Shown here piece by piece: positions 6,166 to 29,649 of a stretch of 31,764 bases of DNA. A model generated the notes under the pieces. It was given only the letters and a program-made list of their open reading frames with translations, searched no databases and had not been told where the DNA came from. Within the stretch, counting starts at the first letter, position 1; each line of letters starts with the position of its first letter. Made by a program: the position numbers and the translations under genes. The DNA is from a virus. Taxonomy: Duplodnaviria; Caudoviricetes. Location: the IMG/VR virus record IMGVR_UViG_3300042401_001464, positions 1-31,764 of that record; one strand, given 5' to 3'.

Positions 6166-6241
6166 TGGAGCAGGTAGGAATCGAACCTACCACATACGCT
6201 CAGTGCAAATGAGCCCCGCCAGCCTTGGTACATGCTGCCCC
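6166..6241 (-). tRNA. tRNA-Ala(TGC)
   Basis: GCTCA-TT-TGC-AC-TGAGC; G3:U70; atypical D arm. Confidence 0.85.
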
Positions 6242-6299
6242 AAATTGAAGGAAGACTAACCTTCTTTGTCCTTTGTACGTAGGGACTTTTAAGTCTTTT

Positions 6300-6375
6300 T
6301 GGGCGAGAGACGGGCTTGAACCCGCGACCTTCTGGTTGGAAGTCAGATGCTCTAAGCCAACTGAGCTACTCTCGC
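6300..6375 (-). tRNA. tRNA-Gly(TCC)
   Basis: GCGAGAG acceptor; anticodon loop CT-TCC-AA. Confidence 0.9.
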
Positions 6376-6385
6376 GTTTATTTTG

Positions 6386-6459
6386 TACCGATAGCGGGAC
6401 TTGAACCCACAACCTTGACGATATAAGCGTCCTGCTCTCACCAATTGAGCTATATCGGC
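6386..6459 (-). tRNA. tRNA-Ile(TAT)
   Basis: GACG-CT-TAT-AT-CGTC; full cloverleaf. Confidence 0.88.
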
Positions 6460-6468
6460 GTTTCAAAG

Positions 6469-6542
6469 TAGTCCGTATGGGATTCGAACCCATGATCTTC
6501 TCATAGAAAGTGAGACGTGTTAAACCACTTCACTAACGGACC
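6469..6542 (-). tRNA. tRNA-Glu(TTC)
   Basis: TCTCA-CT-TTC-TA-TGAGA. Confidence 0.92.
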
Positions 6543-6552
6543 ATATATTTTG

Positions 6553-6636
6553 TGGGAACCGCGGGATTCGAACCCGCTCAGGCGTAAGCCACTTGTTTTA
6601 CAGACAAGCCCGACTCTCCAACGTCGGCGCGCTCCC
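6553..6636 (-). tRNA. tRNA-Tyr(GTA)
   Basis: CTTGT-CT-GTA-AA-ACAAG; long variable arm. Confidence 0.92.
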
Positions 6637-6643
6637 ATAAACG

Positions 6644-6675
6644 AAAAAACCCAATCTGTTTTGCAGACTGGGTTT
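6644..6675 (-). terminator. Attenuator terminator 1, directly 5' of tRNA-Tyr
   Basis: AAACCCAGTCTG-CAAAA-CAGATTGGG-TTTTTT. Confidence 0.85.
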
Positions 6676-6698
6676 ATCATATTTTGTAATCTTTACAA

Positions 6699-6785
6699 CT
6701 ACTCAACAGACAAAGTCAGTCCACTTACAAAGCTACCCGCTTCATATGCATACCCTATGGCTTCTATTTTGTGTGTTGTTTTCAT
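6699..6785 (-). CDS. Putative attenuation leader peptide 1, MKTTHKIEAIGYAYEAGSFVSGLTLSVE
   Basis: 28 aa between promoter boxes and terminator; 11-codon run of I/E/A/G/Y only. Confidence 0.8.
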   Translation of the reverse strand: MKTTHKIEAIGYAYEAGSFVSGLTLSVE

Positions 6786-6916
6786 TGTTTTAGTTTTTAT
6801 CGTTGTTTCTTTTACAAATATAAGTATTTTTCTTTTACTTGTTCTATATATATTATATTTTTTTCCTCTCTTTTTGTATTTTATCGAAAATAAGTGAAAA
6901 AGTTTTATATTTTTTG

Positions 6917-7000
6917 TGGAAAGCTACGGAATCGAACCGTATACCTTTAGGTACCCACTGTTTTCAAGACAGGGCTGCAGGCCGCTGCAGTTCATCTTCC
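6917..7000 (-). tRNA. Atypical tRNA-Ser(TGA) with 6-bp D stem, imperfect acceptor stem and A73
   Basis: CTGT-CT-TGA-AA-ACAG; long variable arm; GGTTCGATTCC. Confidence 0.7.
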
Positions 7001-7002
7001 AT

Positions 7003-7089
7003 TGGCGGAGAGCAGAGTATTTGAAACCCATTCCTTTCAGAACCACTCGCTTAGCAGGCGGTGTCAGGGACCTCCCTGATTTACTATCC
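7003..7089 (-). tRNA. tRNA-Ser(GCT), 8/4-type fold
   Basis: CGC-CT-GCT-AA-GCG; G73 plus encoded CCA; long variable arm. Confidence 0.8.
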
Positions 7090-7096
7090 ATTTTTG

Positions 7097-7184
7097 CGGA
7101 AAAAGTCGGGCTCGAACCGACACACCACTGGGGCCTACGCATTTCAAGTGCGCTGAGCTTAGTCCTCACTGCTCTTATTTTTCC
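7097..7184 (-). tRNA. tRNA-Ser(TGA)
   Basis: GCGCA-CT-TGA-AA-TGCGT; G73; long variable arm. Confidence 0.85.
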
Positions 7185-7189
7185 TTTTG

Positions 7190-7261
7190 TAGTCCCAGAG
7201 GGATTCGAACCCCCACCTGATCGGCCGTAACGACCTGTCCTGTCCAGTTAGACGATGGAAC
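7190..7261 (-). tRNA. tRNA-Arg(ACG)
   Basis: GGTCG-TT-ACG-GC-CGATC. Confidence 0.88.
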
Positions 7262-7272
7262 TATATAAACAC

Positions 7273-7304
7273 AAAAAACCCTCGGCGTTTAGTCCGAGGG
7301 TTTT
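7273..7304 (-). terminator. Attenuator terminator 2, 5' of tRNA-Arg
   Basis: AAAACCCTCGG-ACTAAACG-CCGAGGG-TTTTTT. Confidence 0.85.
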
Positions 7305-7330
7305 ATTTATATGATACAATTAAAGTATTA

Positions 7331-7408
7331 CTAACTAAATAAACACGTCAGATCTATCACTCTACTCGAGCGACTTAAACTTGACGATATGTTAATAATA
7401 GTTTTCAT
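7331..7408 (-). CDS. Putative attenuation leader peptide 2, MKTIINISSSLSRSSRVIDLTCLFS
   Basis: 25 aa; TCG TCA AGT TTA AGT CGC TCG AGT AGA run. Confidence 0.78.
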   Translation of the reverse strand: MKTIINISSSLSRSSRVIDLTCLFS

Positions 7409-7437
7409 AATTCTTTATTTGTTATATATTATAAATG

Positions 7438-7988
7438 TAGTTCTTTGTTTAGATTATTCTTTCTTTATATCTAAAAGCTGTTTACGTATTTTTCTAAAAT
7501 CTTTTCTTGAATAACCTGATAATCCTTCTTTATTAAATTGTCTGTATAATTTTGAGCAATAGTTAATCTGTTGGTTGATTGCATAGTCTCTACGTTCTTT
7601 CCATGAATCTGTAAAAGGATGATTTTGCATTTCTTTACGATTTCGATATACACTATCACAAAATGTAATCTCGGAGTCTAAAATGGGACTACGTGTATTT
7701 ATATATTTAGTTACCCATTTTTCACGTTCTAATATCTTTTGTCTTTTGTGAATATTTTCTTCGTTTTTTTTATTACGCCACTCTTTAAAAGTCTGTGGGT
7801 GTGAGTTTATATAACTAGAGTTAATATATCCAGAGTAACTATACGAATAGTATTGTCCGTTGATTACTCCGTGACCATTGATACTATAATATTGTGCTGA
7901 TACCAAAATACACGTTAGTAACGAGATGGTCAATAAAATTATTTTTGAATTTCTCATATACAAATATAGTTCTTTGTTTAGATTATTC
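7438..7988. repeat. 22-bp direct repeat TAGTTCTTTGTTTAGATTATTC (7438-7459 and 7967-7988) flanking one ORF
   Basis: Exact match read from the sequence. Confidence 0.9.
7454..7963 (-). CDS. Hypothetical secreted protein
   Basis: 169 aa with an N-terminal signal peptide; TATATTTG at the 5' end, so the true start may be the second Met. Confidence 0.7.
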   Translation of the reverse strand: MYMRNSKIILLTISLLTCILVSAQYYSINGHGVINGQYYSYSYSGYINSSYINSHPQTFKEWRNKKNEENIHKRQKILEREKWVTKYINTRSPILDSEITFCDSVYRNRKEMQNHPFTDSWKERRDYAINQQINYCSKLYRQFNKEGLSGYSRKDFRKIRKQLLDIKKE

Positions 7989-8004
7989 CTAATCTTTTTA
8001 TTTT

Positions 8005-8135
8005 TGGTAGGGAGGTGGGATTCGAACCCACGACCACGCGGTTAACAGCCGAAGTAACTCTTCTATTCGGCACTCTTGCGAGGCAAAGTTATAAATGAGT
8101 ATTGTACGTGCTCTACCAACTGAGCTACTCCCTAC
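8005..8135 (-). tRNA. tRNA with GTT (Asn) anticodon interrupted by a 55-nt insert (8052-8106) in the 5' strand of the anticodon stem
   Basis: Canonical D arm (TAGCTCAGTTGGTAGAGC) and T arm; removing the insert restores CGCGG-CTGTTAA-CCGCG. Confidence 0.8.
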
Positions 8136-8138
8136 GTA

Positions 8139-8360
8139 TTATTTTATTCTTACAATCAGTGATCCTGGATTTAGTGGAATCTCCTCTATTTTGAAGTTGT
8201 AGTCTTTCGATACTTCCTTCACAATATTCTTCATACTCTCACTTATACCCGTAACAACCTCAACTTCATAATGTCCTCGCTGTATCATCTGCCAGTAGAA
8301 CTGATCAAGTTTCAATTGTACATCAGCGTGTTTTGTCCCGTGTAAGTCTAATCTGTTCAT
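8139..8360 (-). CDS. Stand-alone Smr (small MutS-related) domain protein
   Basis: LDLHG...VEVVTG...NPGSLIV motifs. Confidence 0.8.
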   Translation of the reverse strand: MNRLDLHGTKHADVQLKLDQFYWQMIQRGHYEVEVVTGISESMKNIVKEVSKDYNFKIEEIPLNPGSLIVRIK

Positions 8361-8380
8361 AAATTATATATTATGTTCTG

Positions 8381-8455
8381 TGACCCCGGTGGGACTTGAA
8401 CCCACGACCCCTCCATTAAAAGTGGAGTGCTCTGAACCAACTGAGCTACGAAGTC
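8381..8455 (-). tRNA. tRNA-Lys(TTT)
   Basis: CTCCA-CT-TTT-AA-TGGAG. Confidence 0.92.
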
Positions 8456-8463
8456 ATAATTTG

Positions 8464-8536
8464 TGTGGATGACAGGAATTGAACCTGCGCGACCCAGATC
8501 TTCAATCTGGTGCTCTACCTGCTGAGCTACATCCAC
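8464..8536 (-). tRNA. tRNA-Phe(GAA)
   Basis: CCAGA-TT-GAA-GA-TCTGG. Confidence 0.9.
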
Positions 8537-8540
8537 GTTT

Positions 8541-8615
8541 TGGTGTCGAACGGGACTTGAACCCGCGACCTCTGGTTCCACAAAACAGCGCTCTGACCGA
8601 CTGAGTTACCGACAC
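8541..8615 (-). tRNA. tRNA-His(GTG), no encoded G-1
   Basis: CTGTT-TT-GTG-GA-ACCAG; C73. Confidence 0.85.
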
Positions 8616-8617
8616 AG

Positions 8618-8690
8618 TGACCCCGGTGGGTTACGATCCCACTCTCCCCATATTAAAAGTATGGTGCTTTCCCGATTAAGCTACGAAGTC
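8618..8690 (-). tRNA. tRNA-Lys(TTT), variant T loop
   Basis: CCATA-CT-TTT-AA-TATGG; T loop ATCGTAA. Confidence 0.88.
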
Positions 8691-8698
8691 ATATTTTG

Positions 8699-8771
8699 CG
8701 CGTCGCCAAGGATTCGAACCCTGACCCTCTGGGTTGGAACCAGAGATGCTAAGCCGTTACACCAACGACGC
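8699..8771 (-). tRNA. tRNA-Trp(CCA)
   Basis: TCTGG-TT-CCA-AC-CCAGA; G73. Confidence 0.88.
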
Positions 8772-8783
8772 TTGTGTTTTTTG

Positions 8784-8855
8784 TTGCCCCGACAGGGATT
8801 GAACCTGTGATCCCCTGATTAAGAGTCAGGTGCTTTACCGCTCAGCTACAAGGCA
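8784..8855 (-). tRNA. tRNA-Lys(CTT)
   Basis: CCTGA-CT-CTT-AA-TCAGG. Confidence 0.9.
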
Positions 8856-8859
8856 ATTT

Positions 8860-8935
8860 TGGTGGAGCCGACGGGTTACGATCCCGTTCCTCTGGATTTT
8901 CAGTCCAGCGCAATGACCACATCTGCCACAGCTCC
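8860..8935 (-). tRNA. tRNA-Phe(GAA), variant T loop
   Basis: CTGGA-CT-GAA-AA-TCCAG; T loop ATCGTAA; encoded CCA. Confidence 0.88.
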
Positions 8936-8944
8936 TTGTTATGT

Positions 8945-9019
8945 TGGGTGCATGAGGAATTTCGAAATCCCGACCTTCGGCTCCACAAACCGACACTCTG
9001 CCTCTGAGCTACACACACC
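8945..9019 (-). tRNA. tRNA-His(GTG)
   Basis: TCGGT-TT-GTG-GA-GCCGA; G-1:C73. Confidence 0.9.
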
Positions 9020-9032
9020 ATATATGTAAACG

Positions 9033-9062
9033 AAAAAACCCAAGTCTTTTGAACTTGGGTTT
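9033..9062 (-). terminator. Attenuator terminator 3, 5' of tRNA-His
   Basis: AAACCCAAGTT-CAAAA-GACTTGGG-TTTTTT. Confidence 0.85.
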
Positions 9063-9082
9063 CTGTTATTTATTGTTATTGT

Positions 9083-9202
9083 CTACAAAGTCGTCAAATC
9101 TTCCGAAAACAAACACAATACTTTTACAGTACCAAGTTCTGATTTATTGCTAAACCACTTGCTTGATTTACTAAAATGCTTATGTGTATTAATTGTTCTC
9201 AT
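9083..9202 (-). CDS. Putative attenuation leader peptide 3, MRTINTHKHFSKSSKWFSNKSELGTVKVLCLFSEDLTTL
   Basis: 39 aa; H/K/F/W/N(+S) run followed by antiterminator GAACTTGG. Confidence 0.8.
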   Translation of the reverse strand: MRTINTHKHFSKSSKWFSNKSELGTVKVLCLFSEDLTTL

Positions 9203-9294
9203 TATTTCTATATATTAAAAATTTATTCTCTCTTTTTTATTTATAGTACAAATTTAGTAAAAGTTTTTAAATTTACCAAGTTTTTTCATTTATT

Positions 9295-9350
9295 TTGTAA
9301 AAAAGTTGAAACTTGTATCTGAATCGTTTCCCATTCCAACTTTTTTACAA
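9295..9350. repeat. Perfect 14-bp inverted repeat (TTGTAAAAAAGTTG / CAACTTTTTTACAA) with a 28-nt spacer
   Basis: Read from the sequence. Confidence 0.8.
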
Positions 9351-9391
9351 ATTTATGGGCTTTTTCCGTTCTACCTAATTTTATAGGTTTT

Positions 9392-9426
9392 AAAAACAAA
9401 AGTCATAAATAAATTTATGACTTTTG
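9392..9426 (-). terminator. Terminator-like hairpin downstream of the lysozyme gene
   Basis: CAAAAGTCATAAA-TTTA-TTTATGACTTTTG-TTTTT. Confidence 0.65.
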
Positions 9427-9514
9427 AAAAAAAAAATTTTATAACTATGACTCAAATAATAGGGTTATTATCATCAATGTATATATTATAATTTAAATGT
9501 CCCTTTTGATATTT

Positions 9515-9973
9515 TTATTTTTTAAAATATAAATCAGCTTCTGCTGTTCTTCTTGTTACTAAACCTTTCAAAACTTTACCGCCTCCTTTTGTCCATTTCA
9601 TGAACTCTGCTCTAATAGTCTCATCATTTGCATTTGCGTTAACTTTTTTCAACAACGTTGATGATTTTAAGTTTGCTGGTCCCACATTGTAACAAAATGA
9701 TACGATTGCGTCAAATTGGTTTTGAGTTATTGTGTCTATGCAATAAGAATCTACATATTGTTCAAATTTCTCTAAACTTTGTTTCAACATCTCAACTGCT
9801 TTTTGTTCTGTTATTGGTTTGTCATTAAGTGTTACTTTTTTACCATTTTTATAAAACGTATTCCCGTATCCGATAGTGGGAATTTTTGCGGGACATAGAT
9901 AAGGTTTTAGACTAAGTCCTTCGAATCTTTTTATTAATTCTATACCATTATCTGAAATTTTTGTAATTCTCAT
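9515..9973 (-). CDS. Phage lysozyme / endolysin (GH24)
   Basis: IKRFEG..PYLCPAKIPTIGYG; QFDAIVSFCYNVG; GLVTRRTAE. Confidence 0.95.
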   Translation of the reverse strand: MRITKISDNGIELIKRFEGLSLKPYLCPAKIPTIGYGNTFYKNGKKVTLNDKPITEQKAVEMLKQSLEKFEQYVDSYCIDTITQNQFDAIVSFCYNVGPANLKSSTLLKKVNANANDETIRAEFMKWTKGGGKVLKGLVTRRTAEADLYFKK

Positions 9974-10557
9974 AATAATTTTTTATTTTTTGAGCCGTCA
10001 TTTGCGTATTTTATACCCATAATTGTACCTACGATGGAGAATGCATTTGTCAGTAGTATACTTACTAAGTTACTCCATGCTGGTCCTATTATGTTTGTTT
10101 CTTTATTTAGTATTATTGCAACTATATAAAGTGATGTTGCTACAACACCAACACCTATTATTATCCATATTGAAACTTTTACAACTGTGTTTATAAGTTC
10201 ATATTGTGTTCTTTTACGTATTATTTCTAAGTCTTCCTCAGCAACCTCTTTGGCCTTTATTGCGTTTTGTTTAGCTATTTCTGCGATGTTTAATGCATTT
10301 TTCAGTTCCTCACCTATCCTTACATTTTCATCTTTCCATTCTAACAATTCTCTATTTTGTGTTTGTATTTGTTTTGTTATAACTAATCTTTTTCTTCGAT
10401 TGTTTTTATCCTTATCTGTTGCAATTTTAATATATTCTTTGAATTCTAAATCTGTATCATCTGTTTCAATTACTTTAAGAATATTACCTTCCAAATAGAT
10501 ATTATTTATCTTGGCTAATTCGAGAAGGTCTTTCTTTGTATCTTTACAGAGTTTCAT
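9970..10557 (-). CDS. Coiled-coil protein with 2 C-terminal TM helices (holin or lysis-regulator candidate)
   Basis: Hydrophobic segments; ATGA overlap with lysozyme. Confidence 0.6.
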   Translation of the reverse strand: MKLCKDTKKDLLELAKINNIYLEGNILKVIETDDTDLEFKEYIKIATDKDKNNRRKRLVITKQIQTQNRELLEWKDENVRIGEELKNALNIAEIAKQNAIKAKEVAEEDLEIIRKRTQYELINTVVKVSIWIIIGVGVVATSLYIVAIILNKETNIIGPAWSNLVSILLTNAFSIVGTIMGIKYANDGSKNKKLL

Positions 10558-10988
10558 TATTTATATATTTTGAAATTTGCAGTCCTGTTCACATAAGATG
10601 GATAGTCCTTTTTAAATTCTTCTAGTCTTGGTTCTATATCATCATTCTTTATTATCCAAAATTGTGCACCTGCTTGTAGTGCTTTGGCTTGTTCGGTTGC
10701 TTCATTTGAAGATGAGATGATGCCTATAACAACGTGATTTCCATATTCAAAGTTTATTCTTCTGACTAATTCTATTCCGTCAAATGTAGAGCCTATTATA
10801 TTTAAGTCTACAAATACACAAACTGGTCTTCCTGTTGGATTTTTGTGCCATTTTGAGAATTTATTGGATGCCTCATCAGCGCTATCTATACATTCTAATG
10901 TAAGTGAAATATCGAGTAGACTACAAGCGTCTTCAAAAACTAAGTGAAATAGAGACTCATCGTCTACGAGTAGTATTGAATCAATCAT
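10557..10988 (-). CDS. Stand-alone response-regulator receiver domain
   Basis: ILLVDDE; VFVDLN (phospho-Asp); DGIEL; IISSS; WIIK. Confidence 0.9.
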   Translation of the reverse strand: MIDSILLVDDESLFHLVFEDACSLLDISLTLECIDSADEASNKFSKWHKNPTGRPVCVFVDLNIIGSTFDGIELVRRINFEYGNHVVIGIISSSNEATEQAKALQAGAQFWIIKNDDIEPRLEEFKKDYPSYVNRTANFKIYK

Positions 10989-12759
10989 TTTTATATTTTA
11001 TTTTTATTTTAGTACCACCAATGTCTACCTTTTCACATGACACTTTGAATCCATGTTCTTTAAGTATTGCAATGCAGATATTAAGTCCTAAACCAGTTCC
11101 TGATTCCTTTTGGTCAGCTTTTCGCGCATATGGTTTAGAGTATATATCAAATTCTTCTTGTGTTAGTCCACGTCCGTTGTCTTGTATGGCTATTGTATCA
11201 TCGGTATCGTGATATATTTTAACTATTCTGGTTGGACTGTCATTGTATTTTAGACCATTTCTTATTAGATTATCTATTGCCGTACAAAATAGAGATTCGT
11301 TAACTTCGATAGTTGGTAAATTATCAGATAATATAACTGCTTCTTTGTATGCGGTTGATTCTAAATATCGGTTAAGTATTTCTTTTATATTATATGGTTC
11401 AATTTCCAGTACACTATCCTTTTTTACCAGATTTGTAAATTCATACACACCTTTATAAACACGTTGTGTGTGAGTGAGTCCTTCTTTTAGAAGTCTTATT
11501 GGTGCCTCTAATTTATATTCTTTTATTATTTCTGGTTTTAGTCTTCGTATCAATGAGTTTATTCCTTTTGGAATATAGGTATTTATACCTGAGTGCATAT
11601 CGTGTCTCAATATTTTGGCGGCGTGTTCTAAGTATGTGTTTTTCTTTTCGATTTCAATTGATGCATCAACGATTTTGGTTACGTCTTGTCTAATTGATGT
11701 GAATCCGATATGTTCATTAGTTTCTGGATCAAAATCTGCCTTTATATAGGTATCTACAAAATAGTGATGTCCATCTTTTGACTTATTGGTAACAACCTCG
11801 TTCCATATTTCTCTTTTGTTTATTGTGGTTGTGTACATATTTTTCCAAAATTCTTTGTTATGTATACCGGAGCTCAATATTTGATGGTCTTTACCCATAA
11901 CTTCTTTAGTTTTCCATCCTGAAACTTTTGTAAATTTTTCATTGACATAAGTTATTCTACCTCTTTTGTTTGTTTTGGAGACCAACATTGCAGTGTCCAT
12001 AAAATTCTCAATTTCTACAAGATTTTTTTTAGTATCATTACCATCTGCAATTGACCATGAGAATGAGTATAATGATGATAATACTTGTGCGAAATTAACT
12101 TCGGTGTCTATCCAATTTCTTTTGGTGTAACTCTCAATACAAATAACACCTATTGTTTCACCTCTGAATAAAATTGGTACATCTATTAGAGATTTTATAC
12201 CAAGTGGTTTTAGATAGCTTTCGTGTAGACATTCTGTTGCTAAATTTGTTTCTGCATCGTCTGCAACTATAACTGGGTTGGTTAGTAATTCATTGAAATA
12301 TGATAGATAATCACTATATTCTAAACTACCACCCGTTGACCAATCATTATCGGATAATTTATAGAGCATATCCAATTCAATTGATTTAGTTTGATCGTTA
12401 TACAACCAAATTCCACATCTATCAACACCTAAATTTTCAACAACATCTTTGGTTAATATTTTTGAACATTCTAATAAATCGCCATCGTAAAAAACTGGAT
12501 TATGTGATTGGTTTATAAGTGTTAAATTTAATTTATTTGTATAATTATTTAATTTTTCCGCATCTTGTGCTCTTATTAGGTGATCTCTTACCATTCTAAA
12601 GAAAAATGGTAGGGTTGATAAAAAAAATAATATTTCGATTGTTTTTGTACTTGATGAAGTTTCTAATATATCGGTCAACATAAGTAACTTTAGTATAAGG
12701 TAACCCACGGAAAAGGCACTTGTCATTATTATGTTTGTGAGTGTTCTTTTACTAATCAT
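10981..12759 (-). CDS. Membrane sensor histidine kinase (TM-GAF-PAS-HisKA-HATPase)
   Basis: GAF (GIKSLIDVPI..GVICIE); PAS (GRITYVNEKF); H box LRHD; N box NLIRNGLKY; DNGRG; GTGLGL. Confidence 0.93.
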   Translation of the reverse strand: MISKRTLTNIIMTSAFSVGYLILKLLMLTDILETSSSTKTIEILFFLSTLPFFFRMVRDHLIRAQDAEKLNNYTNKLNLTLINQSHNPVFYDGDLLECSKILTKDVVENLGVDRCGIWLYNDQTKSIELDMLYKLSDNDWSTGGSLEYSDYLSYFNELLTNPVIVADDAETNLATECLHESYLKPLGIKSLIDVPILFRGETIGVICIESYTKRNWIDTEVNFAQVLSSLYSFSWSIADGNDTKKNLVEIENFMDTAMLVSKTNKRGRITYVNEKFTKVSGWKTKEVMGKDHQILSSGIHNKEFWKNMYTTTINKREIWNEVVTNKSKDGHHYFVDTYIKADFDPETNEHIGFTSIRQDVTKIVDASIEIEKKNTYLEHAAKILRHDMHSGINTYIPKGINSLIRRLKPEIIKEYKLEAPIRLLKEGLTHTQRVYKGVYEFTNLVKKDSVLEIEPYNIKEILNRYLESTAYKEAVILSDNLPTIEVNESLFCTAIDNLIRNGLKYNDSPTRIVKIYHDTDDTIAIQDNGRGLTQEEFDIYSKPYARKADQKESGTGLGLNICIAILKEHGFKVSCEKVDIGGTKIKIKYKND

Positions 12760-12800
12760 AACTTATATTTTTTATTAGAATATATATAAATATTTAAATG

Positions 12801-12830
12801 AAAAAAACCGACAATAAATGTCGGTTTTTT
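12801..12830. terminator. Intrinsic terminator
   Basis: aaaaaaaccgaca-ataaa-tgtcggtttttt. Confidence 0.8.
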
Positions 12831-12843
12831 ATTTTACTATAAA

Positions 12844-12972
12844 CTAAAAATTAAATATCAATTTACCGAGTCTTATAGATTTTGTTTCAAAATCTGATAG
12901 TGTTGTTTTATTACTTATTACGAAATCTGCATCTTCCTTAGGTATATTGAAAGATAATTTTTCCTTTTTTAC
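12844..12972 (-). pseudogene. Start-less C-terminal gene remnant resembling the end of phage dNMP-kinase-like proteins
   Basis: VKKEKLSFNIPKEDADFVISNKTTLSDFETKSIRLGKLIFNF*; resemblance is from memory only. Confidence 0.45.
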
Positions 12973-13769: not shown

Positions 13770-13799
13770 ATGTTATATATAAATGTCTTGCATCCCCCA

Positions 13800-14222: not shown

Positions 14223-14237
14223 GATTATTATAATTTT

Positions 14238-19960: not shown

Positions 19961-19995
19961 TATGAGTAGTTTTTACAAATATAATGTTTTAAATC

Positions 19996-20646: not shown

Positions 20647-20658
20647 GGTGGCATTTTT
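20631..20658. terminator. Bidirectional terminator
   Basis: aaaaatgccacc-ctaa-ggtggcattttt. Confidence 0.85.
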
Positions 20659-22190
20659 TATGCTAAAACTGTTTCGGTTCCACTTTTAGTGAGAGCCTCA
20701 ATTTTACCTCTAATCTCTGTAAGTGTGGTTTCGTTGTAAAACTTACCATCTTCGTAGATAACTTGAAGGATTCCTTCTTTCTCTTCGTCAAATGTGCATT
20801 GTACACCTACTGAGTGGTCACCATCTTCTGTTTCATGAACCGAGATAAGTCCTTTCAATGATTTCTTAGTTCCATCATCTGAGATTGGATCTTTGTAGAT
20901 ATCGTGTTGAACTCCATTCTCTTCGAACCAAGCACCTTTTGCTGCAAATCCAAATGTATCACGCGTATTGTATTGGTAAGTATAAGAACCTACACCTAAA
21001 ACAATGTTCGTAGCTGCAAAACCTTTCTCTGCTAATCTCTCATAGATTTGAACCTGACGATCGGTCGTAATAGAGTCACCGTAAATGGCACCGATGTGTG
21101 GGTCTAAGACTTTATATCCTTGTTCATTGATTGTTCCACCAAAGATGTCCCATAAACACTCAATCAATCCTTTTGTGTAGAACTCTGGATAGAATGCGCG
21201 GTTCTCATTATCTGTTAATTCAGTTCTTCCGTGTCCACAGATGATTTCAACTGGATCTCCAGAGTCAGGACGAATAACTAACTTACCATCACGAGATAAG
21301 ATTTGGTCTTTCAGGTCGAAGCAATATCCACCTTCAGATGGTTTGGCAACTTTTGTGATGTCGAACGTATCCATTACTACTGATAAAATACCTTTATCAA
21401 ATTTGTTCATCCAATCGATTAACATTTGTTTCTCACCAACGGTGAAAATTTTGGTAGTAGATACAGAGTGTTCTGATGCATTTACAGAGTTGATACAAAC
21501 TTCATTCTTAGGCTCACCATAGAAGTAACGAGCTGCTGGAATAACTACAATAGTATCAGAACCTCTAAATGACGTAGCGTGTCCTAAGCCAGATGAAACC
21601 ATCGTCCAAGGATCGATACCACGTGCTGAGAAGTCGTGTGCTAAGAAAGGAATCAACCAAGCGTTAGTAGGGTCTGTCTTTAGTACCCACTCGTAAAGGT
21701 TTCGGTTGTACTTAAGTGCGATTGTTGCGGATGTTGCAGGTTTCCACGCCAAAGATGACACGATTGTCTCTAAGAAAAGAGTAAGCCAAGCGTATCCTTT
21801 CTTTGTGTTGACGAACGTCATATGTGGCACGTTCGGTCTTGTCTCGATTCCCTCAGGAAGAGCTTTTGCTCTAATTGGTAAGTAACCTAATTTATGAAGA
21901 GTAATAAAGTGGTCTCCATTAAATTCCATACCTAAATATATACTCATATCTTCAACGAATGATATAGCTTCTTCAACTGGCTTGTTGAAAAAGTTTTCAG
22001 TGAATTCGTCATGAATCCATCGCCAAGTTAGTTGTTGTCCAAATGATACAATTTTATTGATACCTTTTGGTGCGTGTTTTGTAGAACGTGGAATCCATGT
22101 CCCATAAAGGAAGTCAGTTCCTTCTGCGAGCATCGCTTTGTGGCCAATCTTGTAGCCGTCTGTGTAATACAGTGATGTGGGTCTAAACAT
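20658..22190 (-). CDS. nadV: Nicotinamide phosphoribosyltransferase family protein (NAMPT/NadV; probable Namat of NARP1)
   Basis: TDGYKIGH; HDFSARG; ASEHSV; VIRPDSGDP; IYGDSIT; RDTFGFA; KKSLKG. Confidence 0.92.
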   Translation of the reverse strand: MFRPTSLYYTDGYKIGHKAMLAEGTDFLYGTWIPRSTKHAPKGINKIVSFGQQLTWRWIHDEFTENFFNKPVEEAISFVEDMSIYLGMEFNGDHFITLHKLGYLPIRAKALPEGIETRPNVPHMTFVNTKKGYAWLTLFLETIVSSLAWKPATSATIALKYNRNLYEWVLKTDPTNAWLIPFLAHDFSARGIDPWTMVSSGLGHATSFRGSDTIVVIPAARYFYGEPKNEVCINSVNASEHSVSTTKIFTVGEKQMLIDWMNKFDKGILSVVMDTFDITKVAKPSEGGYCFDLKDQILSRDGKLVIRPDSGDPVEIICGHGRTELTDNENRAFYPEFYTKGLIECLWDIFGGTINEQGYKVLDPHIGAIYGDSITTDRQVQIYERLAEKGFAATNIVLGVGSYTYQYNTRDTFGFAAKGAWFEENGVQHDIYKDPISDDGTKKSLKGLISVHETEDGDHSVGVQCTFDEEKEGILQVIYEDGKFYNETTLTEIRGKIEALTKSGTETVLA

Positions 22191-22202
22191 TTTATTTTAT
22201 TT

Positions 22203-22841
22203 TTATTTATTATCTTCGAATATAAGTGTGAATCTTTTTTTTGATAAACTCCATCTCATTTTATAATAGACGAATATGTACTCAGTCTTTTTATCGTCTT
22301 TATAGTTTTGTAGAAAAGTAAATGTCATCCATTTCAATTTTTTACTTTCAATTGCATCCGACACTGATTTTATAGAAATTATTTCATAAAATAAAGAATC
22401 TGAACATGTGCAACTTTCATTTTCGTCAAAAATACGTAAAACAATGTCATTTTTTATTGTGTCTGACATATAATAAAAGAAACGAATTATTGAAAACTCG
22501 GCTTTCGGATCATCTATTTCTTCACTTATAACATATTTTAGTTTTTCGTTGTTTTCAAATAATAATTTCCTTCTATCTGCGGCCAATGTGTTAATCTTTA
22601 CATTGACATCTTTGTTAGTCATAAAAATACCATTCTTATGAATATGTTTTGCAATAGTTTCTATTAAGTTTATGGAATCGTATTCGTGTAAATATGAGTA
22701 AGTGTGTCCATTATCCACAAAGTAATATTCCTTTAGGTTGGGTTCCTCATAATATATTGGTGTGTCCGCCTGTGAGAGACTAAAAAACGAAAATGATATA
22801 ATAAATATCGTTAGCATTCTGTTTATCACATCAGTTCTCAT
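22203..22841 (-). CDS. Hypothetical secreted protein
   Basis: 212 aa with a signal peptide. Confidence 0.7.
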   Translation of the reverse strand: MRTDVINRMLTIFIISFSFFSLSQADTPIYYEEPNLKEYYFVDNGHTYSYLHEYDSINLIETIAKHIHKNGIFMTNKDVNVKINTLAADRRKLLFENNEKLKYVISEEIDDPKAEFSIIRFFYYMSDTIKNDIVLRIFDENESCTCSDSLFYEIISIKSVSDAIESKKLKWMTFTFLQNYKDDKKTEYIFVYYKMRWSLSKKRFTLIFEDNK

Positions 22842-23028
22842 TATATTTTCTTTTATTATGTTCTTTCTCTATTCCTTTCGCCAAACATTCGTTTTGAGAT
22901 TCCTCTTCAAATACTCCACCCATAAAGATAAAGAATATTCCTGGTAATGAAAGTAAGAAAGAAGGTATTATAAGAATCATTCCGAATATCCTAAATATGG
23001 CTCCTAATATGTTGATCATTTTTCTCAT
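22831..23028 (-). CDS. Small membrane protein
   Basis: 65 aa, hydrophobic N-terminal half; overlaps both neighbours. Confidence 0.6.
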   Translation of the reverse strand: MRKMINILGAIFRIFGMILIIPSFLLSLPGIFFIFMGGVFEEESQNECLAKGIEKEHNKRKYNEN

Positions 23029-23441
23029 ATCTCGTATATTCCTGGTTCGTCTGACTCGTCCAAAAAACGGAATTTTACCATAGTCTTTCCGACTAATTCG
23101 TGTGTCGACGTTTTGTTAACGTTTTCTATTTCTCCTATTGTGTATGCGGTTCTTACAGAATCTGGTATTCCTTGTCGTATACACATTTCAGAATAAAGTC
23201 TGTGAATTTCTTCCGCAATCTCTCTAACCTTCTCTGGCTTAGTTGTACATCCAGGATGTACATCCTCGTCCATAGGTATAACAATTTCGTCTTTGAACCT
23301 CTCGTTTATATACTCTGCAATAGTCGCGACATTTTCTTGAAAGGATTTAGGTGTCTCGGAAAGGAAATGACAATACTTTATCCAATCACCAGGAACACCA
23401 TCTTTTGGACATATCTTTGTGTATATAACTCCGTATTCCAT
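23025..23441 (-). CDS. Hypothetical protein
   Basis: 138-aa ORF in operon context. Confidence 0.75.
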   Translation of the reverse strand: MEYGVIYTKICPKDGVPGDWIKYCHFLSETPKSFQENVATIAEYINERFKDEIVIPMDEDVHPGCTTKPEKVREIAEEIHRLYSEMCIRQGIPDSVRTAYTIGEIENVNKTSTHELVGKTMVKFRFLDESDEPGIYEI

Positions 23442-23442
23442 C

Positions 23443-24252
23443 TTATACCGTTTGTGGTTTGTTAAAAACTGTTCCTTCTAAAAGATAAACAAGATCATAA
23501 GTTGTCAAATTGTTGAGCTCGTAATATCCGAATTTCGAGTTGGTTGTGAATATTTTGTCATAGTGCTGCTCCAACTCAGGGTTAGGATTCTGAACCGTCA
23601 TATGTGATACTGCTAAGTAAAGTTTACCCGCGTTTCTTTCTTTCAGAAGTTTAGCCAAACCAACAAAAGTTCCTCCAAAAACACAAAGGTCATCAATAAC
23701 AAGAATATCTTTACCCTCAAAGTCTTCGTTCTCGATTACTTGCGTTAGCTTGTGTGTGATTAGGTCTCTCGACTTACTCGCACTATACACCTCACCCTCG
23801 AACTTAATTTTATCTGCTAATTTATTGATCCATTTGAACGATCCTGCGTCAGTTGATAAAAGCACCGGTTCCTGTTCCAGGTCTTTTAGAACCTGTGATA
23901 TAAAAGCACTATTGTCTACGACTCTAGCGTTTCTCACTCCCATTCCTGTTGAATCTGAGTGTGGATGGAATATTGTAACCTTGCTAAAATCACAAGAGTT
24001 GATAAAGTCTGCAACAAGTTTTAGTTCAAAAGACTCATTGTCTGCAAATCTACGGTCGTGTTGTTGTTGGAACATGCACGGTATAAAAAGCTCTACATCG
24101 TTTACTCCGTTAAAGTCACAAACGTCTTTGATCGACTTTATAAAGAAAAGGTCCTCGTATGAATTTATCCTCTCTACAATCTGTGGATTGGTGAAGTCTT
24201 GTACCTCTGCATAAATACCACCATCGGGATATTTTTTTCTAGTATATTTCAT
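23443..24252 (-). CDS. prs: Ribose-phosphate pyrophosphokinase family protein (probable Adps of NARP1)
   Basis: YPDG; QHDRR; HPHS; STDAGS; KSRD; VIDDLCVFGGTF; AVSH. Confidence 0.88.
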   Translation of the reverse strand: MKYTRKKYPDGGIYAEVQDFTNPQIVERINSYEDLFFIKSIKDVCDFNGVNDVELFIPCMFQQQHDRRFADNESFELKLVADFINSCDFSKVTIFHPHSDSTGMGVRNARVVDNSAFISQVLKDLEQEPVLLSTDAGSFKWINKLADKIKFEGEVYSASKSRDLITHKLTQVIENEDFEGKDILVIDDLCVFGGTFVGLAKLLKERNAGKLYLAVSHMTVQNPNPELEQHYDKIFTTNSKFGYYELNNLTTYDLVYLLEGTVFNKPQTV

Positions 24253-24284
24253 ATTACTAATATACGGATTTTTATATATAGTTT

Positions 24285-25743: not shown

Positions 25744-26009
25744 GATGGTGTATTTAACTCATCGTAAAGACCATAATAAACTGGTGATCTTTTGAGTATG
25801 TTCATCATTTCTTCACCTAAATTTGATATGGCAAATAGAGATTTAGGAGTGAATTCACTCTTTTCAACAATATTTCCTGAGCACAATTCCTTTATTTCCT
25901 TTTTAGTAAAATGTACATCTATTTTACCCAAAGAATCACGTGTTGTTAGATATCCCTTCTTACATATTTCCGTAAAAATTGATTCCGTTACTACTATTCT
26001 ATTTTCCAT
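25740..26009 (-). CDS. Hypothetical protein
   Basis: 89-aa ORF; ATGA overlap. Confidence 0.7.
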   Translation of the reverse strand: MENRIVVTESIFTEICKKGYLTTRDSLGKIDVHFTKKEIKELCSGNIVEKSEFTPKSLFAISNLGEEMMNILKRSPVYYGLYDELNTPS

Positions 26010-26072
26010 ATTTGAATTTATTTTAATATATATATTGTAATAAACATAGTTGGATTAAATTATATAAAATTT

Positions 26073-26390
26073 ATGAATATAGATTTTAAAAAAGATTTTA
26101 AATTTGTTGCACGTAATCAAACCTGGTTTGTTGGTGATGTCACTTTAGACTCGGACTGTACCGAATGGCACGAAACGATGGTGATTGAGAAGGGTTGGGG
26201 TTTCTTTCGGGGTTTGACCTACGAGACATACAAAGGTTACAACGGAGAACTTCCACGTGAAGACGAGGAGAGTTGCTCCTTCGAGGAATTCGAAATATAC
26301 TACAACGGAGTTCTAATTGATGAATTCACCACCTATGGTGAATTGAAAGTAATCATAAGAGAATCCAGAATTGATGAGATAATAAATTAA
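26073..26390 (+). CDS. Hypothetical protein
   Basis: 105-aa ORF ending IRESRIDEIIN. Confidence 0.75.
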   Translation: MNIDFKKDFKFVARNQTWFVGDVTLDSDCTEWHETMVIEKGWGFFRGLTYETYKGYNGELPREDEESCSFEEFEIYYNGVLIDEFTTYGELKVIIRESRIDEIIN

Positions 26391-26391
26391 T

Positions 26392-26422
26392 AAAAAACCC
26401 GGTTAGAAATTTAACCGGGTTA
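26392..26422. terminator. Terminator between convergent genes
   Basis: aaaaaacccggtta-gaaatt-taaccgggtt. Confidence 0.75.
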
Positions 26423-26437
26423 TTTAATTTTATTCAA

Positions 26438-29089
26438 TTAATCAAATTTAAAGTTCATTGTAATTGGTTTACTTATGTTTTTAACAATTTTACCATCAGT
26501 GTCCATATCATTTAGTTCTTGGTAATTCATAGTAATTGGTTTACTTAAATTTTTGATTATTTTTGTTTTTTTAGACCAGGGCCATCCAAGTGCATTGGGT
26601 GTTGGTACATCATCTTTTGCCAATAATATATTTTGTGGTGAGTTTGTAACAACTGATTTACTATTAGTATAAAGTGCTTGTGGTACAGAAGCAGTTGGTG
26701 ATAGAATTAATTCTGGATTTTTATATATCATACGACCATCTGTTGAGAAATATAATTTCCAAACATCTACTAATTGTAGGGGTCTTTTCCATATTGATAC
26801 CATACTTATTTCACCATCGGTATTATACCATTGTGATTTGTTATAACTACCACCTATATTACATTTATGTGTACCATTACTTCCTGGATCTACACCCCAT
26901 AAAGGAAGTGAATAGCGTTGCGCACCGTAATTTGCAGTCCAATAGGATCCATATCTTTGATTCCAATTATTATTTATAATTTCACTTATAGTAACCAAAT
27001 CTCTCCAATCGGTATAATTATCATTCCAATAAAAACCACTACGTAATGCACTATTTATAAAAACATTTGTTGTTTCGGTTTGTGCATCTCTTGATAAAAC
27101 TATATGTGTTTCTGGATTTTGTACAGATGACCAATTGTGTGGTACAACATAAAATGAATATGTTGAACCATTCATTACTTTGAATGAAATACCATATGGT
27201 TGTGCACTTAGAATCCATCCATCTCCATATTGACTTTGTGATGAACCAGAGTATGATGATATAAGTGGTTGTTCTCCGTTTATAGTTGAGAAAGTACCAG
27301 TAGAATCAGAATATTGTATTCCATCGTTTGGTGAATACCATAAACTAACAGCAAAGCTTGAAGTTCCGAAATTTAATGAATTATCGGGTAATGCTACATA
27401 TGAGTAAGTTACTCCTACTGGTTCAAAAGAAAATCCGGCCATTTTTTCAGATTTAGAGAATGATGCACTACCACACATTGTTCCATGATTTGTACCCCAA
27501 TTATCTTTTGCGGAATCTAAAAATTTATTAGTAAAAGGATAACTAACGCCGGCACCACCATTATAAATCATTTTTACTTCATCTTCTGATAAAACTCTCG
27601 TCCATGTATTTAGTGAATCAATTCTACCATTATGGTAATTTGTGATTAAGTTATTTCTAACATGCCACGCACCAATAGAACATTTTATTTCATCTACATT
27701 ATAAGAAGGGTTCACTGTATTTGCCGAGGTTTGTACTAATTCACCATCAATGTATATTTTACATTCACCAAAAGTGCCAGATTCTGTAGAAAGAAACTCA
27801 TTTGATGAAAATGTATTTCTCCTATTTGTAACTGTTATATAATGCCAATTACCAACTGATACTGTTCCACCCATAATTCTAACGTTGGAACTCCAGTTCC
27901 ATGCACCATATGGGTTATTCGAATTATTCATAATATCTAAAGAGATACTTGTACCTCTTCTGAATATACCCCATCCATTTGCAAGACCATCTATATGTAA
28001 ATTACTTACAATACATCCATCTGTTGATATATCTGAAAATAAGGCCCAAAAACTAACACTAAAGTCACCTGTGAAATTTAGAGTGTTAGGTGTAACTGAT
28101 ATAAAGTCATTGACACCATCGAAATTAAATGAATAACCACTTATACCTTTGGTGATATATACACCATTCATTGGTAGTGAACTCGCAGTTCCTACTAAAT
28201 CCGAATAGCTTTTATAAAGTTCATTTCCGTTATCTCCATATGGATAAGAAATACCTAATCCATTATTATATGATTCTCTTACGTGTTTATATTCCAAATC
28301 ACTATTAAAAGTTACAAGTGAATCTATTTTGAATGCTGGAGGTGCTGGTGTTAATATACCATCTACGTGTGTTACTCCTATGTAAGAATTACATTGTAAA
28401 GGATAAAATATATCCATTGTATTACTTGCACCATTTAGATTTAATGTATTTACTGATGCGGTTAAACCATTTATATAAATGTTAGGACTGCTAAACATTT
28501 TTTTAGATACTGCAATATGTGTCCATTGTTCATTCAATGTAAATTGTGTATAATTGTGATTTATACGCGTTGCGTATATTCCATCTACTGGATCACTTTC
28601 ACATATGAATGATAAAGTCCCATTATCATATTCTAATCTCCAACCCATTTCAGGATATCCTTTACCTCTACAGCTTATAATTCCTATTTTAGATGCTGTT
28701 GCTGTTGATGGTACGCTAACCCACATAGAAAATGCAAAATCATTTTCAAACTTAAGACCATCATTTGGTATAGATAAGAATATATCACCATTGAATAGAA
28801 AGGCTGCATTCACTTTCCCTGTCGTGTAAGTATATGGATTGTCATATGTTGTTGAGTATGTTCCAAACGATATCATTTTTGTTGCATTTATACCGCCGTG
28901 TGAATCATTTGTGTTGCTATTAAAGTTGTATGCTGATTTTATTAATGATTTTTCTATTTCAGAATCACCATTCCATGCGTTTCTAATATCGTTATCAATT
29001 AGATTACCTGGATAAACTCCATTCCATACACCATATAGATTTTGGTAAAGATCTTTACCAGGTTCGATTGATTGAACAAATCCTTGCAT
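26438..29089 (-). CDS. Protein with three LamG/concanavalin-A-like domains (putative virion fibre or decoration protein)
   Basis: Repeated GK...AFxFxG, FSVSFW, WHYI, IYIDG, IG, GRID...WTRVLS motifs. Confidence 0.8.
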   Translation of the reverse strand: MQGFVQSIEPGKDLYQNLYGVWNGVYPGNLIDNDIRNAWNGDSEIEKSLIKSAYNFNSNTNDSHGGINATKMISFGTYSTTYDNPYTYTTGKVNAAFLFNGDIFLSIPNDGLKFENDFAFSMWVSVPSTATASKIGIISCRGKGYPEMGWRLEYDNGTLSFICESDPVDGIYATRINHNYTQFTLNEQWTHIAVSKKMFSSPNIYINGLTASVNTLNLNGASNTMDIFYPLQCNSYIGVTHVDGILTPAPPAFKIDSLVTFNSDLEYKHVRESYNNGLGISYPYGDNGNELYKSYSDLVGTASSLPMNGVYITKGISGYSFNFDGVNDFISVTPNTLNFTGDFSVSFWALFSDISTDGCIVSNLHIDGLANGWGIFRRGTSISLDIMNNSNNPYGAWNWSSNVRIMGGTVSVGNWHYITVTNRRNTFSSNEFLSTESGTFGECKIYIDGELVQTSANTVNPSYNVDEIKCSIGAWHVRNNLITNYHNGRIDSLNTWTRVLSEDEVKMIYNGGAGVSYPFTNKFLDSAKDNWGTNHGTMCGSASFSKSEKMAGFSFEPVGVTYSYVALPDNSLNFGTSSFAVSLWYSPNDGIQYSDSTGTFSTINGEQPLISSYSGSSQSQYGDGWILSAQPYGISFKVMNGSTYSFYVVPHNWSSVQNPETHIVLSRDAQTETTNVFINSALRSGFYWNDNYTDWRDLVTISEIINNNWNQRYGSYWTANYGAQRYSLPLWGVDPGSNGTHKCNIGGSYNKSQWYNTDGEISMVSIWKRPLQLVDVWKLYFSTDGRMIYKNPELILSPTASVPQALYTNSKSVVTNSPQNILLAKDDVPTPNALGWPWSKKTKIIKNLSKPITMNYQELNDMDTDGKIVKNISKPITMNFKFD

Positions 29090-29171
29090 AATATATATAT
29101 TTTACTTTTATATATTATTACTTACAATGTACCCGAGAAATAAACCACTACTCTACTACTCTATATTTTTG

Positions 29172-29244
29172 TCTAAGTGGGAGGTCACGATCCCCCGGCC
29201 TGAGAGTCCCAAACTCCCCGCTCTACCATCTGAGCTACACCTAG
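29172..29244 (-). tRNA. tRNA-Pro(TGG), variant T loop
   Basis: GGGAG-TT-TGG-GA-CTCTC; T loop ATCGTGA. Confidence 0.85.
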
Positions 29245-29254
29245 TTATTTCTTG

Positions 29255-29326
29255 CGGTCTATGCGAGAATCGAACTCGCGTCTCCTCATAGACAGTGAGG
29301 AAGGATAACCACTACCCTAATAGACC
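29255..29326 (-). tRNA. tRNA-Asp(GTC)
   Basis: CCTCA-CT-GTC-TA-TGAGG; G73. Confidence 0.9.
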
Positions 29327-29333
29327 ATTTTTG

Positions 29334-29407
29334 TTGTCCCGCCTGGGCTCGAACCAGGAGTCTTCGCGGCCAAAACGCGACGATTTGCCTAATTAATCTA
29401 CAGGACA
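29334..29407 (-). tRNA. tRNA-Gln(TTG)
   Basis: TCGCG-TT-TTG-GC-CGCGA; U1:A72. Confidence 0.9.
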
Positions 29408-29413
29408 ATTTTG

Positions 29414-29488
29414 TAGGGTAGACCGGACTCGAACCGACACTATGTCCTCATCCCAAATGAGGCGGCCTACCAATTGGCCAACTACCCT
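29414..29488 (-). tRNA. tRNA-Pro(TGG)
   Basis: CCTCA-TT-TGG-GA-TGAGG. Confidence 0.88.
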
Positions 29489-29499
29489 AAGTATAAACG

Positions 29500-29529
29500 A
29501 AAAAACCCAGTTAGTAACTAACTGGGTTT
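29500..29529 (-). terminator. Attenuator terminator 4, 5' of tRNA-Pro
   Basis: AAACCCAGTTAG-TTA-CTAACTGGG-TTTTTT. Confidence 0.85.
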
Positions 29530-29550
29530 ATAATCATTTAAGCTTTTTAT

Positions 29551-29649
29551 TTAACTTTTTGACAATATACAGTTAGTCCCAAGTAACTTAGGTTGATCCT
29601 GATCCTGCGGGATGTTTACTACTGCGATATTTTTGTTAAAAGTTTTCAT
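29551..29649 (-). CDS. Putative attenuation leader peptide 4, MKTFNKNIAVVNIPQDQDQPKLLGTNCILSKS
   Basis: 32 aa; CCG CAG GAT CAG GAT CAA CCT run followed by antiterminator GACTAACTG. Confidence 0.82.
   Translation of the reverse strand: MKTFNKNIAVVNIPQDQDQPKLLGTNCILSKS

Follow-up and report, generated by a model that had tools for sequence, protein, structure and literature searches.

Codon-matched leader reading frames upstream of phage tRNA cassettes as probable transcription attenuators

In the attenuators of amino-acid operons (pheL, trpL, hisL, and the multivalent thrL and ilvL), a short leader open reading frame (ORF) with control codons is followed by two competing RNA helices (2:3 and 3:4) and a U-tract, and a ribosome stalled at the control codons results in read-through. 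The pheM-pheST attenuator feeds back in this manner on a component of the translation apparatus itself. T-box riboswitches sense the status of a tRNA via a codon and switch a terminator; they are ribosome-free and contain a large stem I and a UGGN bulge. The mechanism of pheL, including its 1:2 helix, has been described (PMC3082878), and leader-peptide attenuation has been reported before amino-acid operons in Flavobacterium (PMC9723704). A short ORF with control codons, competing helices, and a U-tract are likewise predicted in the DNA analyzed here, the complete linear virus record IMGVR_UViG_3300042401_001464 (Duplodnaviria; Caudoviricetes; 31,764 nucleotides [nt]; hereafter "the window"), where they precede four cassettes of tRNA genes. 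As the completeness of the record is estimated at 13%, the whole phage would measure roughly 240 kilobases (kb).

Judged from the sequence, these leaders and hairpins are very probably ribosome-mediated transcription attenuators controlling tRNA genes, which would extend an established mechanism to a target of a new kind.

Four tRNA cassettes and their leaders

The features of the four modules are the following (window coordinates, strand, description; aa, amino acids).

6165..6636, minus strand: tRNA cassette 1, Tyr(GTA), Glu(TTC), Ile(TAT), Gly(TCC), Ala(TGC) (ARAGORN/Rfam)
6644..6675, minus strand: terminator-like hairpin and U-tract 1 (sequence and folding, -16.3 kcal/mol)
6699..6785, minus strand: leader ORF 1, 28 aa; control run (Ile, Glu, Ala, Gly, Tyr) in codons 7-17 at 6735-6767
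6717..6724, minus strand: predicted antiterminator strand (segment 2) of leader 1 (-12.0 kcal/mol)
6815..6822, minus strand: Bacteroidota-type -7 box (TAnnTTTG, exact) before leader 1 (consensus match, predicted promoter)
6918..7262, minus strand: tRNA cassette 2, Arg(ACG), Ser(TGA), Ser(GCT, by eye), Ser(TGA) (ARAGORN/Rfam and eye)
7273..7303, minus strand: terminator-like hairpin and U-tract 2 (sequence and folding, -16.2 kcal/mol)
7331..7408, minus strand: leader ORF 2, 25 aa; Ser/Arg run in codons 8-16 at 7361-7387
7348..7356, minus strand: putative antiterminator strand of leader 2, degenerate (bulged), at the position of the clean one in orthologues (-8.8 kcal/mol)
8006..8134, minus strand: tRNA-Asn(GTT), its anticodon stem enlarged by a 55-nt insertion (relaxed-setting search)
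8380..9018, minus strand: tRNA cassette 3, His, Phe, Lys(CTT), Trp, Lys(TTT), His, Phe, Lys(TTT) (ARAGORN/Rfam)
9033..9062, minus strand: terminator-like hairpin and U-tract 3 (sequence and folding, -13.3 kcal/mol)
9083..9202, minus strand: leader ORF 3, 39 aa; His/Lys/Phe/Trp/Asn (and Ser) run in codons 7-20 at 9143-9184
9132..9139, minus strand: predicted antiterminator strand of leader 3 (-12.3 kcal/mol; codon-shuffle p 0.025)
9249..9256, minus strand: Bacteroidota-type -7 box (exact) before leader 3 (consensus match, predicted promoter)
29171..29488, minus strand: tRNA cassette 4, Pro(TGG), Gln(TTG), Asp(GTC), Pro(TGG) (ARAGORN/Rfam)
29500..29529, minus strand: terminator-like hairpin and U-tract 4 (sequence and folding, -14.0 kcal/mol)
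29551..29649, minus strand: leader ORF 4, 32 aa; Pro/Gln/Asp run in codons 14-20 at 29590-29610
29570..29578, minus strand: predicted antiterminator strand of leader 4 (-11.7 kcal/mol)
29686-29693, minus strand: -7 box with one mismatch before leader 4 (consensus match)

A preliminary description of this DNA had proposed one layout for all four operons, namely, a promoter box, a short M(K/R)T ORF, a hairpin with the motif AAACCC..GGGTTTTT, and then the tRNA genes. The ORFs translate as stated (25-39 aa, starting with MKT or MRT, one before each hairpin), and the motif occurs exactly four times in the window, both strands counted, always immediately ahead of a cassette's first tRNA. The distance from stop codon to stem is 23, 27, 20, and 21 nt for leaders 1-4, that from hairpin to first tRNA 7-13 nt. 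By sequence and folding, a predicted intrinsic terminator (3:4 stem and U-tract) precedes every cassette that has a leader. The notion of a shared promoter box stood for leaders 1 and 3, which are preceded by an exact match to the -7 consensus of Bacteroidota, TAnnTTTG (PMC9723704, PMC7366714), and less so for leaders 2 and 4, where one position deviates; the box was present in 22 of 288 minus-strand tiles of the window. Each short ORF lies between this putative promoter, defined by consensus match only, and the tRNA genes it would regulate. None of the four leader peptides matched a Pfam family.

With default settings, 20 tRNAs were counted by ARAGORN and 20 by Rfam; relaxed settings added two Ser(TGA) and the Asn(GTT) bearing the 55-nt insertion, and Ser(GCT) at about 7005-7090 was recognized by eye only. 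As no terminator was detected between the two, the tRNA-Asn probably belongs to cassette 3 as its most distal gene. The Trp and Met tRNAs at 30483-30844 are without a leader of their own.

The leaders carry, in frame, codons for the amino acids served by the tRNAs downstream. The true pairing of leaders and cassettes ranks first among the 24 possible assignments, and disjoint amino-acid sets drawn at random never equaled it in 200,000 trials, in agreement with what had been claimed for the four runs. Within the best 9-residue window, the match is 9/9, 8/9, 6/9, and 7/9 for leaders 1-4, respectively, which was equaled by 0/4420, 0/4423, 364/4409, and 0/4416 pieces of the same length from the phage's own proteins. 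Both Ile codons of leader 1 are ATA, which is decoded by Ile(TAT) of its own cassette.

Leader/cassette co-variation in other phages and in bacteria

A permutation test of leader codons against cassette anticodons, and co-variation of the two in related phages, had been suggested as checks. To this end, IMG/VR was scanned for a hairpin followed by a tRNA T-loop, blind to ORFs; 121 of about 550 loci were used which, together with the window and two loci from a scan for the exact terminator tail, gave 113 sites in 87 sequence clusters (set 1). That earlier viral scan had yielded 98 loci with a tRNA behind the hairpin at only two, both on one contig. Leaders were chosen by position and upstream A content alone, blind to the cassette. 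A leader was present in 69 of the 83 non-window clusters, and its match to its own cassette (mean z 1.54) was not reached in any of 20,000 permutations (0.02 ± 0.14). The match was specific to the reading frame, as the +1 frame (-0.11), the +2 frame (-0.22), and the reverse complement (0.06) gave no signal. When only one member of each of 29 families was retained, p never exceeded 0.0005 in 200 draws. Fifteen of 18 testable amino acids were enriched (p<0.05) in leaders whose cassette contains the corresponding tRNA. In a second set, obtained by scanning for stems other than AAACCC (121 of about 150 loci, resulting in 97 sites and 51 clusters), leaders were present in 40/51 clusters and the result was the same (z 1.91 versus 0.01 ± 0.20; other frames null; 0/20,000). 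Both checks thus came out in favor of the match. Within a wider upstream stretch at the sites of set 1, 65 short ORFs were A-rich, and the stop codon of 51 of them lies 20-32 nt ahead of the stem.

The start context of the leaders was compiled for the 58 sites of set 1 that pass the filter for A content and distance, the four of the window included. A was present at -3 in 81%, at -6 in 71%, and at -12 in 74%, and a Shine-Dalgarno-like motif in 4/58; TAnnTTTG was found upstream of 30/58 leaders, compared with eight on the reverse strand. An A-rich start context fits initiation in Bacteroidota (PMC6847099), an agreement that is partly built in because the rule for picking leaders favors A-rich starts. 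The promoter and start-codon features look Bacteroidota-like and suggest a host of this type for the phage.

In orthologues of leaders 2, 3, and 4, segment 2 and the 5′ and 3′ arms of the terminator change in concert; leader 1 is less clean in this respect. Compared with the close relative L507, the control run of leader 1 shows four synonymous and no non-synonymous changes, that of leader 3 three and none. The huge phage LR745206 from GenBank, found by tRNA similarity, has six leaders whose true pairing with their cassettes ranks 1/720. It contains counterparts of all four modules of the window and, in addition, a Gln module and an Asn/Leu/Val/Thr/Ile/Arg module; several other tRNA groups of this phage have no leader by the positional rule. 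Contigs of relatives in RNA libraries span leaders 1, 2, and 4 with their terminators, and some enter a tRNA; the RNA runs hold only 0.06-0.09 of the words. In contigs of runs X2 and X5 (region of window 29492-29669), the relatives' leader 4 and terminator are followed by a Gln-like tRNA, not Pro. These contigs have loose ends, and the order of the cassette appears to shuffle, yet to stay within the amino acids of leader 4.

A single transcript may carry leaders 3, 2, and 1 as a cascade, because neither the stretch from cassette 3 to leader 2 nor that from cassette 2 to leader 1 yielded a terminator, and because leader 3 contains Ser codons, which the next cassette serves. In L507, L343, L443, and L515, too, the Arg/Ser block comes after the His/Phe/Lys/Trp block. 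In L143, no Arg/Ser block was present within about 2 kb after the His/Phe/Lys/Trp block, and the leader run has one Ser.

Among three records of cultured Bacteroidota phages that were examined, no carrier was found; the tRNA clusters of Tenacibaculum phage Gundel_1 are preceded by neither a terminator nor a leader, and PTm1 gave no tRNA match. In bacterial genomes from GTDB (120 of about 1300 stretches), 43 sites had a hairpin and a tRNA, 12 of which had a positional leader, without an overall match signal (p 0.09). Thus, the method does not itself create the signal seen in phages. The strict pattern of leader plus terminator was absent from five bacterial genomes, and 151 genomes of the family of G004, searched with the G004 array, gave mostly single-tRNA matches. 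The design nevertheless seems not to be confined to phages, as a few bacterial genomes, mostly Bacteroidota, carry leaders that look matched by inspection: for Ile and Gln in L263 (Flavihumibacter) and L325, for Asn in L295, and for Ile, Lys, Ile, His, Arg, and Gln in L344 (the genome of L251, Chitinophaga). In the Chitinophagaceae genomes (L344, 946-1700; L263, 1400-1750), leader and terminator precede a spare tRNA array starting with Ile(TAT). An RNase-H-like gene follows these arrays, in L553 together with an SPFH gene; in L344, the array and the RNase-H-like and SPFH genes behind it lie among ordinary chromosomal genes. This suggests that the Chitinophagaceae arrays are a cellular version of the design. 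In L295, a bacterial genome of 1.0 megabases, the Asn-rich short leader and terminator (about 1400-1600) stand before a single tRNA-Asn, upstream of an ORF that by eye resembles prolyl-tRNA synthetase.

Switch geometry, proposed mechanism, and rival explanations

For leaders 1, 3, and 4, complementarity to the 5′ arm of the terminator had been noted, and it was recovered here as 8-9 base pairs located just past the control run. This places a predicted 2:3 antiterminator, which excludes the 3:4 helix, just downstream of the putative stall site; in leader 2, it is weak. In both phage sets, leaders pair better with their own 5′ arm than with swapped arms: -12.5 versus -8.9 ± 0.27 kcal/mol in set 1 (58 sites) and -11.8 versus -8.1 ± 0.36 kcal/mol in set 2 (40 sites), each with 0/20,000 permutations. 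Controls with the 3′ arm, the spacer, or the reverse complement showed no such preference. Codons of the own cassette make up 0.48-0.52 of the positions 4-9 codons before segment 2, and 0.12-0.19 at and after it, the level for foreign cassettes being 0.15-0.18. A ribosome waiting where the cognate codons peak would, therefore, just free segment 2. In a model in which the last four bases of the stem are inside the polymerase and RNA behind the ribosome is barred from forward pairing, nucleation of the terminator was 0.12-0.13 with the ribosome on cognate codons, 0.53-0.55 with the ribosome at the stop codon, and 0.34-0.44 with a foreign leader (55 and 28 sites). The assumptions of the model in part dictate the comparison with the stop codon, but not the foreign-leader control.

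Layout, codon/cassette match, arm-specific complementarity, and spacing are properties read directly from the DNA. As to how they act, we infer that the leaders are translated, that transcription and translation are coupled (which is assumed for Bacteroidota), and that the hairpins terminate. A ribosome stalled in the cognate run would leave segment 2 free to pair with the 5′ arm of the terminator, and transcription would continue into the tRNAs; with a fast ribosome, segment 2 would be melted and the terminator would form. The decision would be kinetic and not one of equilibrium, and the outcome a negative feedback on tRNA supply for each cassette. The sensor would read the decoding speed of the cognate codons, with a shortage of the matching aminoacyl-tRNA during infection as the most likely trigger. 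As an extra tRNA helps only when tRNA, and not the amino acid, is short, high demand during infection or tRNA cleavage are likely to cause it. The preliminary description had read the modules as attenuators acting against starvation or tRNA-cleaving defense. Attenuation is backed by the frame-specific co-variation, the own-arm pairing, the concerted change, the purely synonymous divergence of control runs 1 and 3 from L507, and the position of the codons; a role against starvation is doubtful on logic, because more tRNA does not cure a lack of amino acid. That large Bacteroidota-type phages use such modular tRNA sensors as a multi-channel monitor of the tRNA pool, re-supplying tRNAs cut by a host anticodon nuclease, is conceivable, and we advance it tentatively and with some doubt.

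Several observations weigh against attenuation as proposed. Leader 3 taken alone is not significant, since so many pieces of the phage's own proteins equal its match, and its five Ser codons (codons 11-21) are outside the service of its own cassette. Ile, Val, and Thr were not significantly enriched in the leaders of set 1. At the level of isoacceptors, the match is modest (370/449 codons readable versus 352.6 expected; z 2.7), with Leu and Arg boxes poorly matched and Ser(GCT) genes under-called. Related phages share ancestry, so that the site counts overstate the number of independent origins. The antiterminator of leader 2 is weak and bulged (-8.8 kcal/mol). Taken singly, the antiterminators reached significance (p<0.05) at only 35/58 sites; in the window, codon shuffles of leaders 1, 3, and 4 gave p 0.30, 0.025, and 0.075, so only leader 3 beats them singly. 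With full-length RNA at equilibrium, the probability of the terminator is about 1 at nearly every ribosome position, which means that the decision must be kinetic. A general 1:2 helix was not found, the 5′ arm being paired to 0.59 without a ribosome and to 0.63 with a ribosome on cognate codons (p 0.45); the effect is clear at some sites (leader 2, L116, L143, L168, and L171). Lacking this helix in general, an untranslated leader is predicted to read through. The RNA-library contigs were not used as evidence, because DNA carry-over is possible and contigs show no transcript ends.

The equilibrium result, which always favors the hairpin, and the hairpin's distance of only 7-13 nt to the first tRNA, where RNase P acts, would also fit a hairpin and translated leader that tune processing or stability of the pre-tRNA, or a fixed leaky read-through, instead of regulated termination. 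This is improbable: every hairpin has a 3′ U-tract, and the arm-specific competing strand together with the peak of cognate codons one ribosome footprint upstream fits only a switch operated by ribosome position. Somewhat less probable still are attenuators of opposite sign, or general sensors that respond to coupling or to translation stress as caused by antibiotics or a shortage of ribosomes. Most sites are predicted to form the antiterminator when no ribosome is present, so that any block of leader translation would give read-through, and expression of the cyanobacterial trn array rises under general translational stress (PMC8421152). A general sensor would, however, have no need for codons that track the cassette in a frame-specific manner, and the cognate codons lie upstream of segment 2, not on it, which sets the sign as stalling turning transcription on.

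T-boxes, too, combine a codon with a terminator/antiterminator pair. The leaders might sense uncharged tRNA without a ribosome, through T-box-like pairing of codon and anticodon; they might also be relics copied from tRNA sequence, or encode small functional peptides that just happen to lie beside the tRNAs they use. All of this is very unlikely. Rfam gave no T-box match and the UGGNACC motif is present in 0/4 leaders; start, stop, fixed stop-to-stem distance, and synonymous change point to translation; the longest string shared with the own cassette (7-9 nt) is no longer than that shared with foreign cassettes; and the peptides are not conserved outside the control run. Chance, that is, AT-rich short ORFs before terminators with an accidental match, might account for leader 3 alone and for those single antiterminators that are not significant. 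For the modules as a whole, it has next to no probability, as it is refuted at the comparative level by the permutation tests, and bacterial genomes scanned in the same way offered few leaders (12/43 sites) and no overall signal. Ribosome-mediated attenuation, thus, remains the preferred reading of the four modules.

Gene context and relation to described systems

Genes of the window encode an endolysin, NAMPT, a PRPP synthetase, a sensor kinase with receiver, and homing-type endonucleases. NAMPT and PRPP synthetase form an NAD salvage pair (20658-24252, minus strand); the closest match of NAMPT among 50,697 GenBank phage records is to Tenacibaculum phages PTm1/PTm5 (63%). Genes for a GAF/PAS histidine kinase and a receiver protein (9515-12759, minus strand) immediately precede a coiled-coil ORF and the endolysin gene. 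A 229-aa ORF (29710-30399, minus strand) adjoining leader 4 on the upstream side has a weak likeness to RNA 2′-phosphotransferase Tpt1/KptA, with neither match reaching the cut-off (E 2.6e-4 in Pfam, 0.02 in NCBIfam). A 169-aa ORF of no known family (7454-7963, minus strand) separates tRNA-Asn from leader 2; it is missing in L507, where tRNA-Asn abuts leader 2, and is, therefore, probably an insertion in the window. Cassette 3 encloses a 73-aa Smr-like ORF (8139-8360, minus strand; Pfam E 5e-5, below cut-off). The 55-nt insertion of tRNA-Asn interrupts the anticodon stem on its 5′ side, which would be an uncommon place for an intron in a phage tRNA, and is retained (56 nt) in L507; the insert alone has no significant fold (z -0.87).

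Two non-coding stretches of the minus strand are without a match in Rfam. The one at 31590-31700 directly follows a truncated tRNA at the contig end and is strongly structured (z -5.9), with three hairpins, the last a T-loop-capped stem of 11 base pairs. The other (about 210 nt, 30560-30770) is richer in GC and located between tRNA-Trp and tRNA-Met; the fold of 30560-30700 is not significant, and some of its short strings presumably resemble conserved regions of RNase P RNA.

It has long been asked why phages carry tRNA genes, and a codon-matched sensor for each cassette would speak for supply on demand. The condition that opens a given leader would be the condition its tRNAs serve, which turns the question into a reporter assay. 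If the proposed attenuation is correct, tRNA supply would feed back directly and negatively on transcription of tRNA genes, the leaders would read out which tRNAs become limiting during infection, and these natural multi-codon sensors could report on tRNA-cleaving defense systems. The same design in some bacterial chromosomes, if true, would mean a general, overlooked feedback on tRNA gene expression.

The preliminary description knew of no attenuation acting on tRNA genes themselves, and none was found in searches of open PubMed Central and bioRxiv. The word "attenuat" is absent from the main text of the huge-phage paper PMC7162821. The Rfam leader families (His, Trp, Phe, Thr, and Leu) gave no hit at gathering score, the best being His_leader with 23.6 bits versus 49. 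Phage tRNAs are known to counter anticodon nucleases (PMC10264068), as T5 tRNA-Tyr does with retron Eco7/Ec78 (PMC11555353) and T5 tRNA-Lys with PARIS (PMC11464382). Such counter-defense offers a reason for supplying depleted tRNAs; in these accounts, expression is credited to a strong promoter, and no feedback sensor is described. The cyanobacterial trn or L-array operon likewise switches on spare tRNAs, near RNA-repair genes, when translation is impaired, but it is controlled by direct repeats at the promoter and responds globally, not codon-specifically; "attenuat-" and "leader" do not occur in the main text (PMC8421152).

With T-boxes, the phage modules would share the sensing of tRNA status through a codon and the switching of a terminator, but the T-box hallmarks were not found in the leaders of the window. 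Compared with pheL, they showed no general 1:2 helix, and their untranslated default is predicted to be read-through. Where pheM-pheST targets an aminoacyl-tRNA synthetase and responds to a single amino acid, the target here would be the tRNA genes. In contrast to the attenuators of amino-acid operons, finally, the modules are phage-borne, precede genes for tRNAs instead of enzymes, have leaders that cover as many as five amino acids or more, and occur several in parallel per genome.

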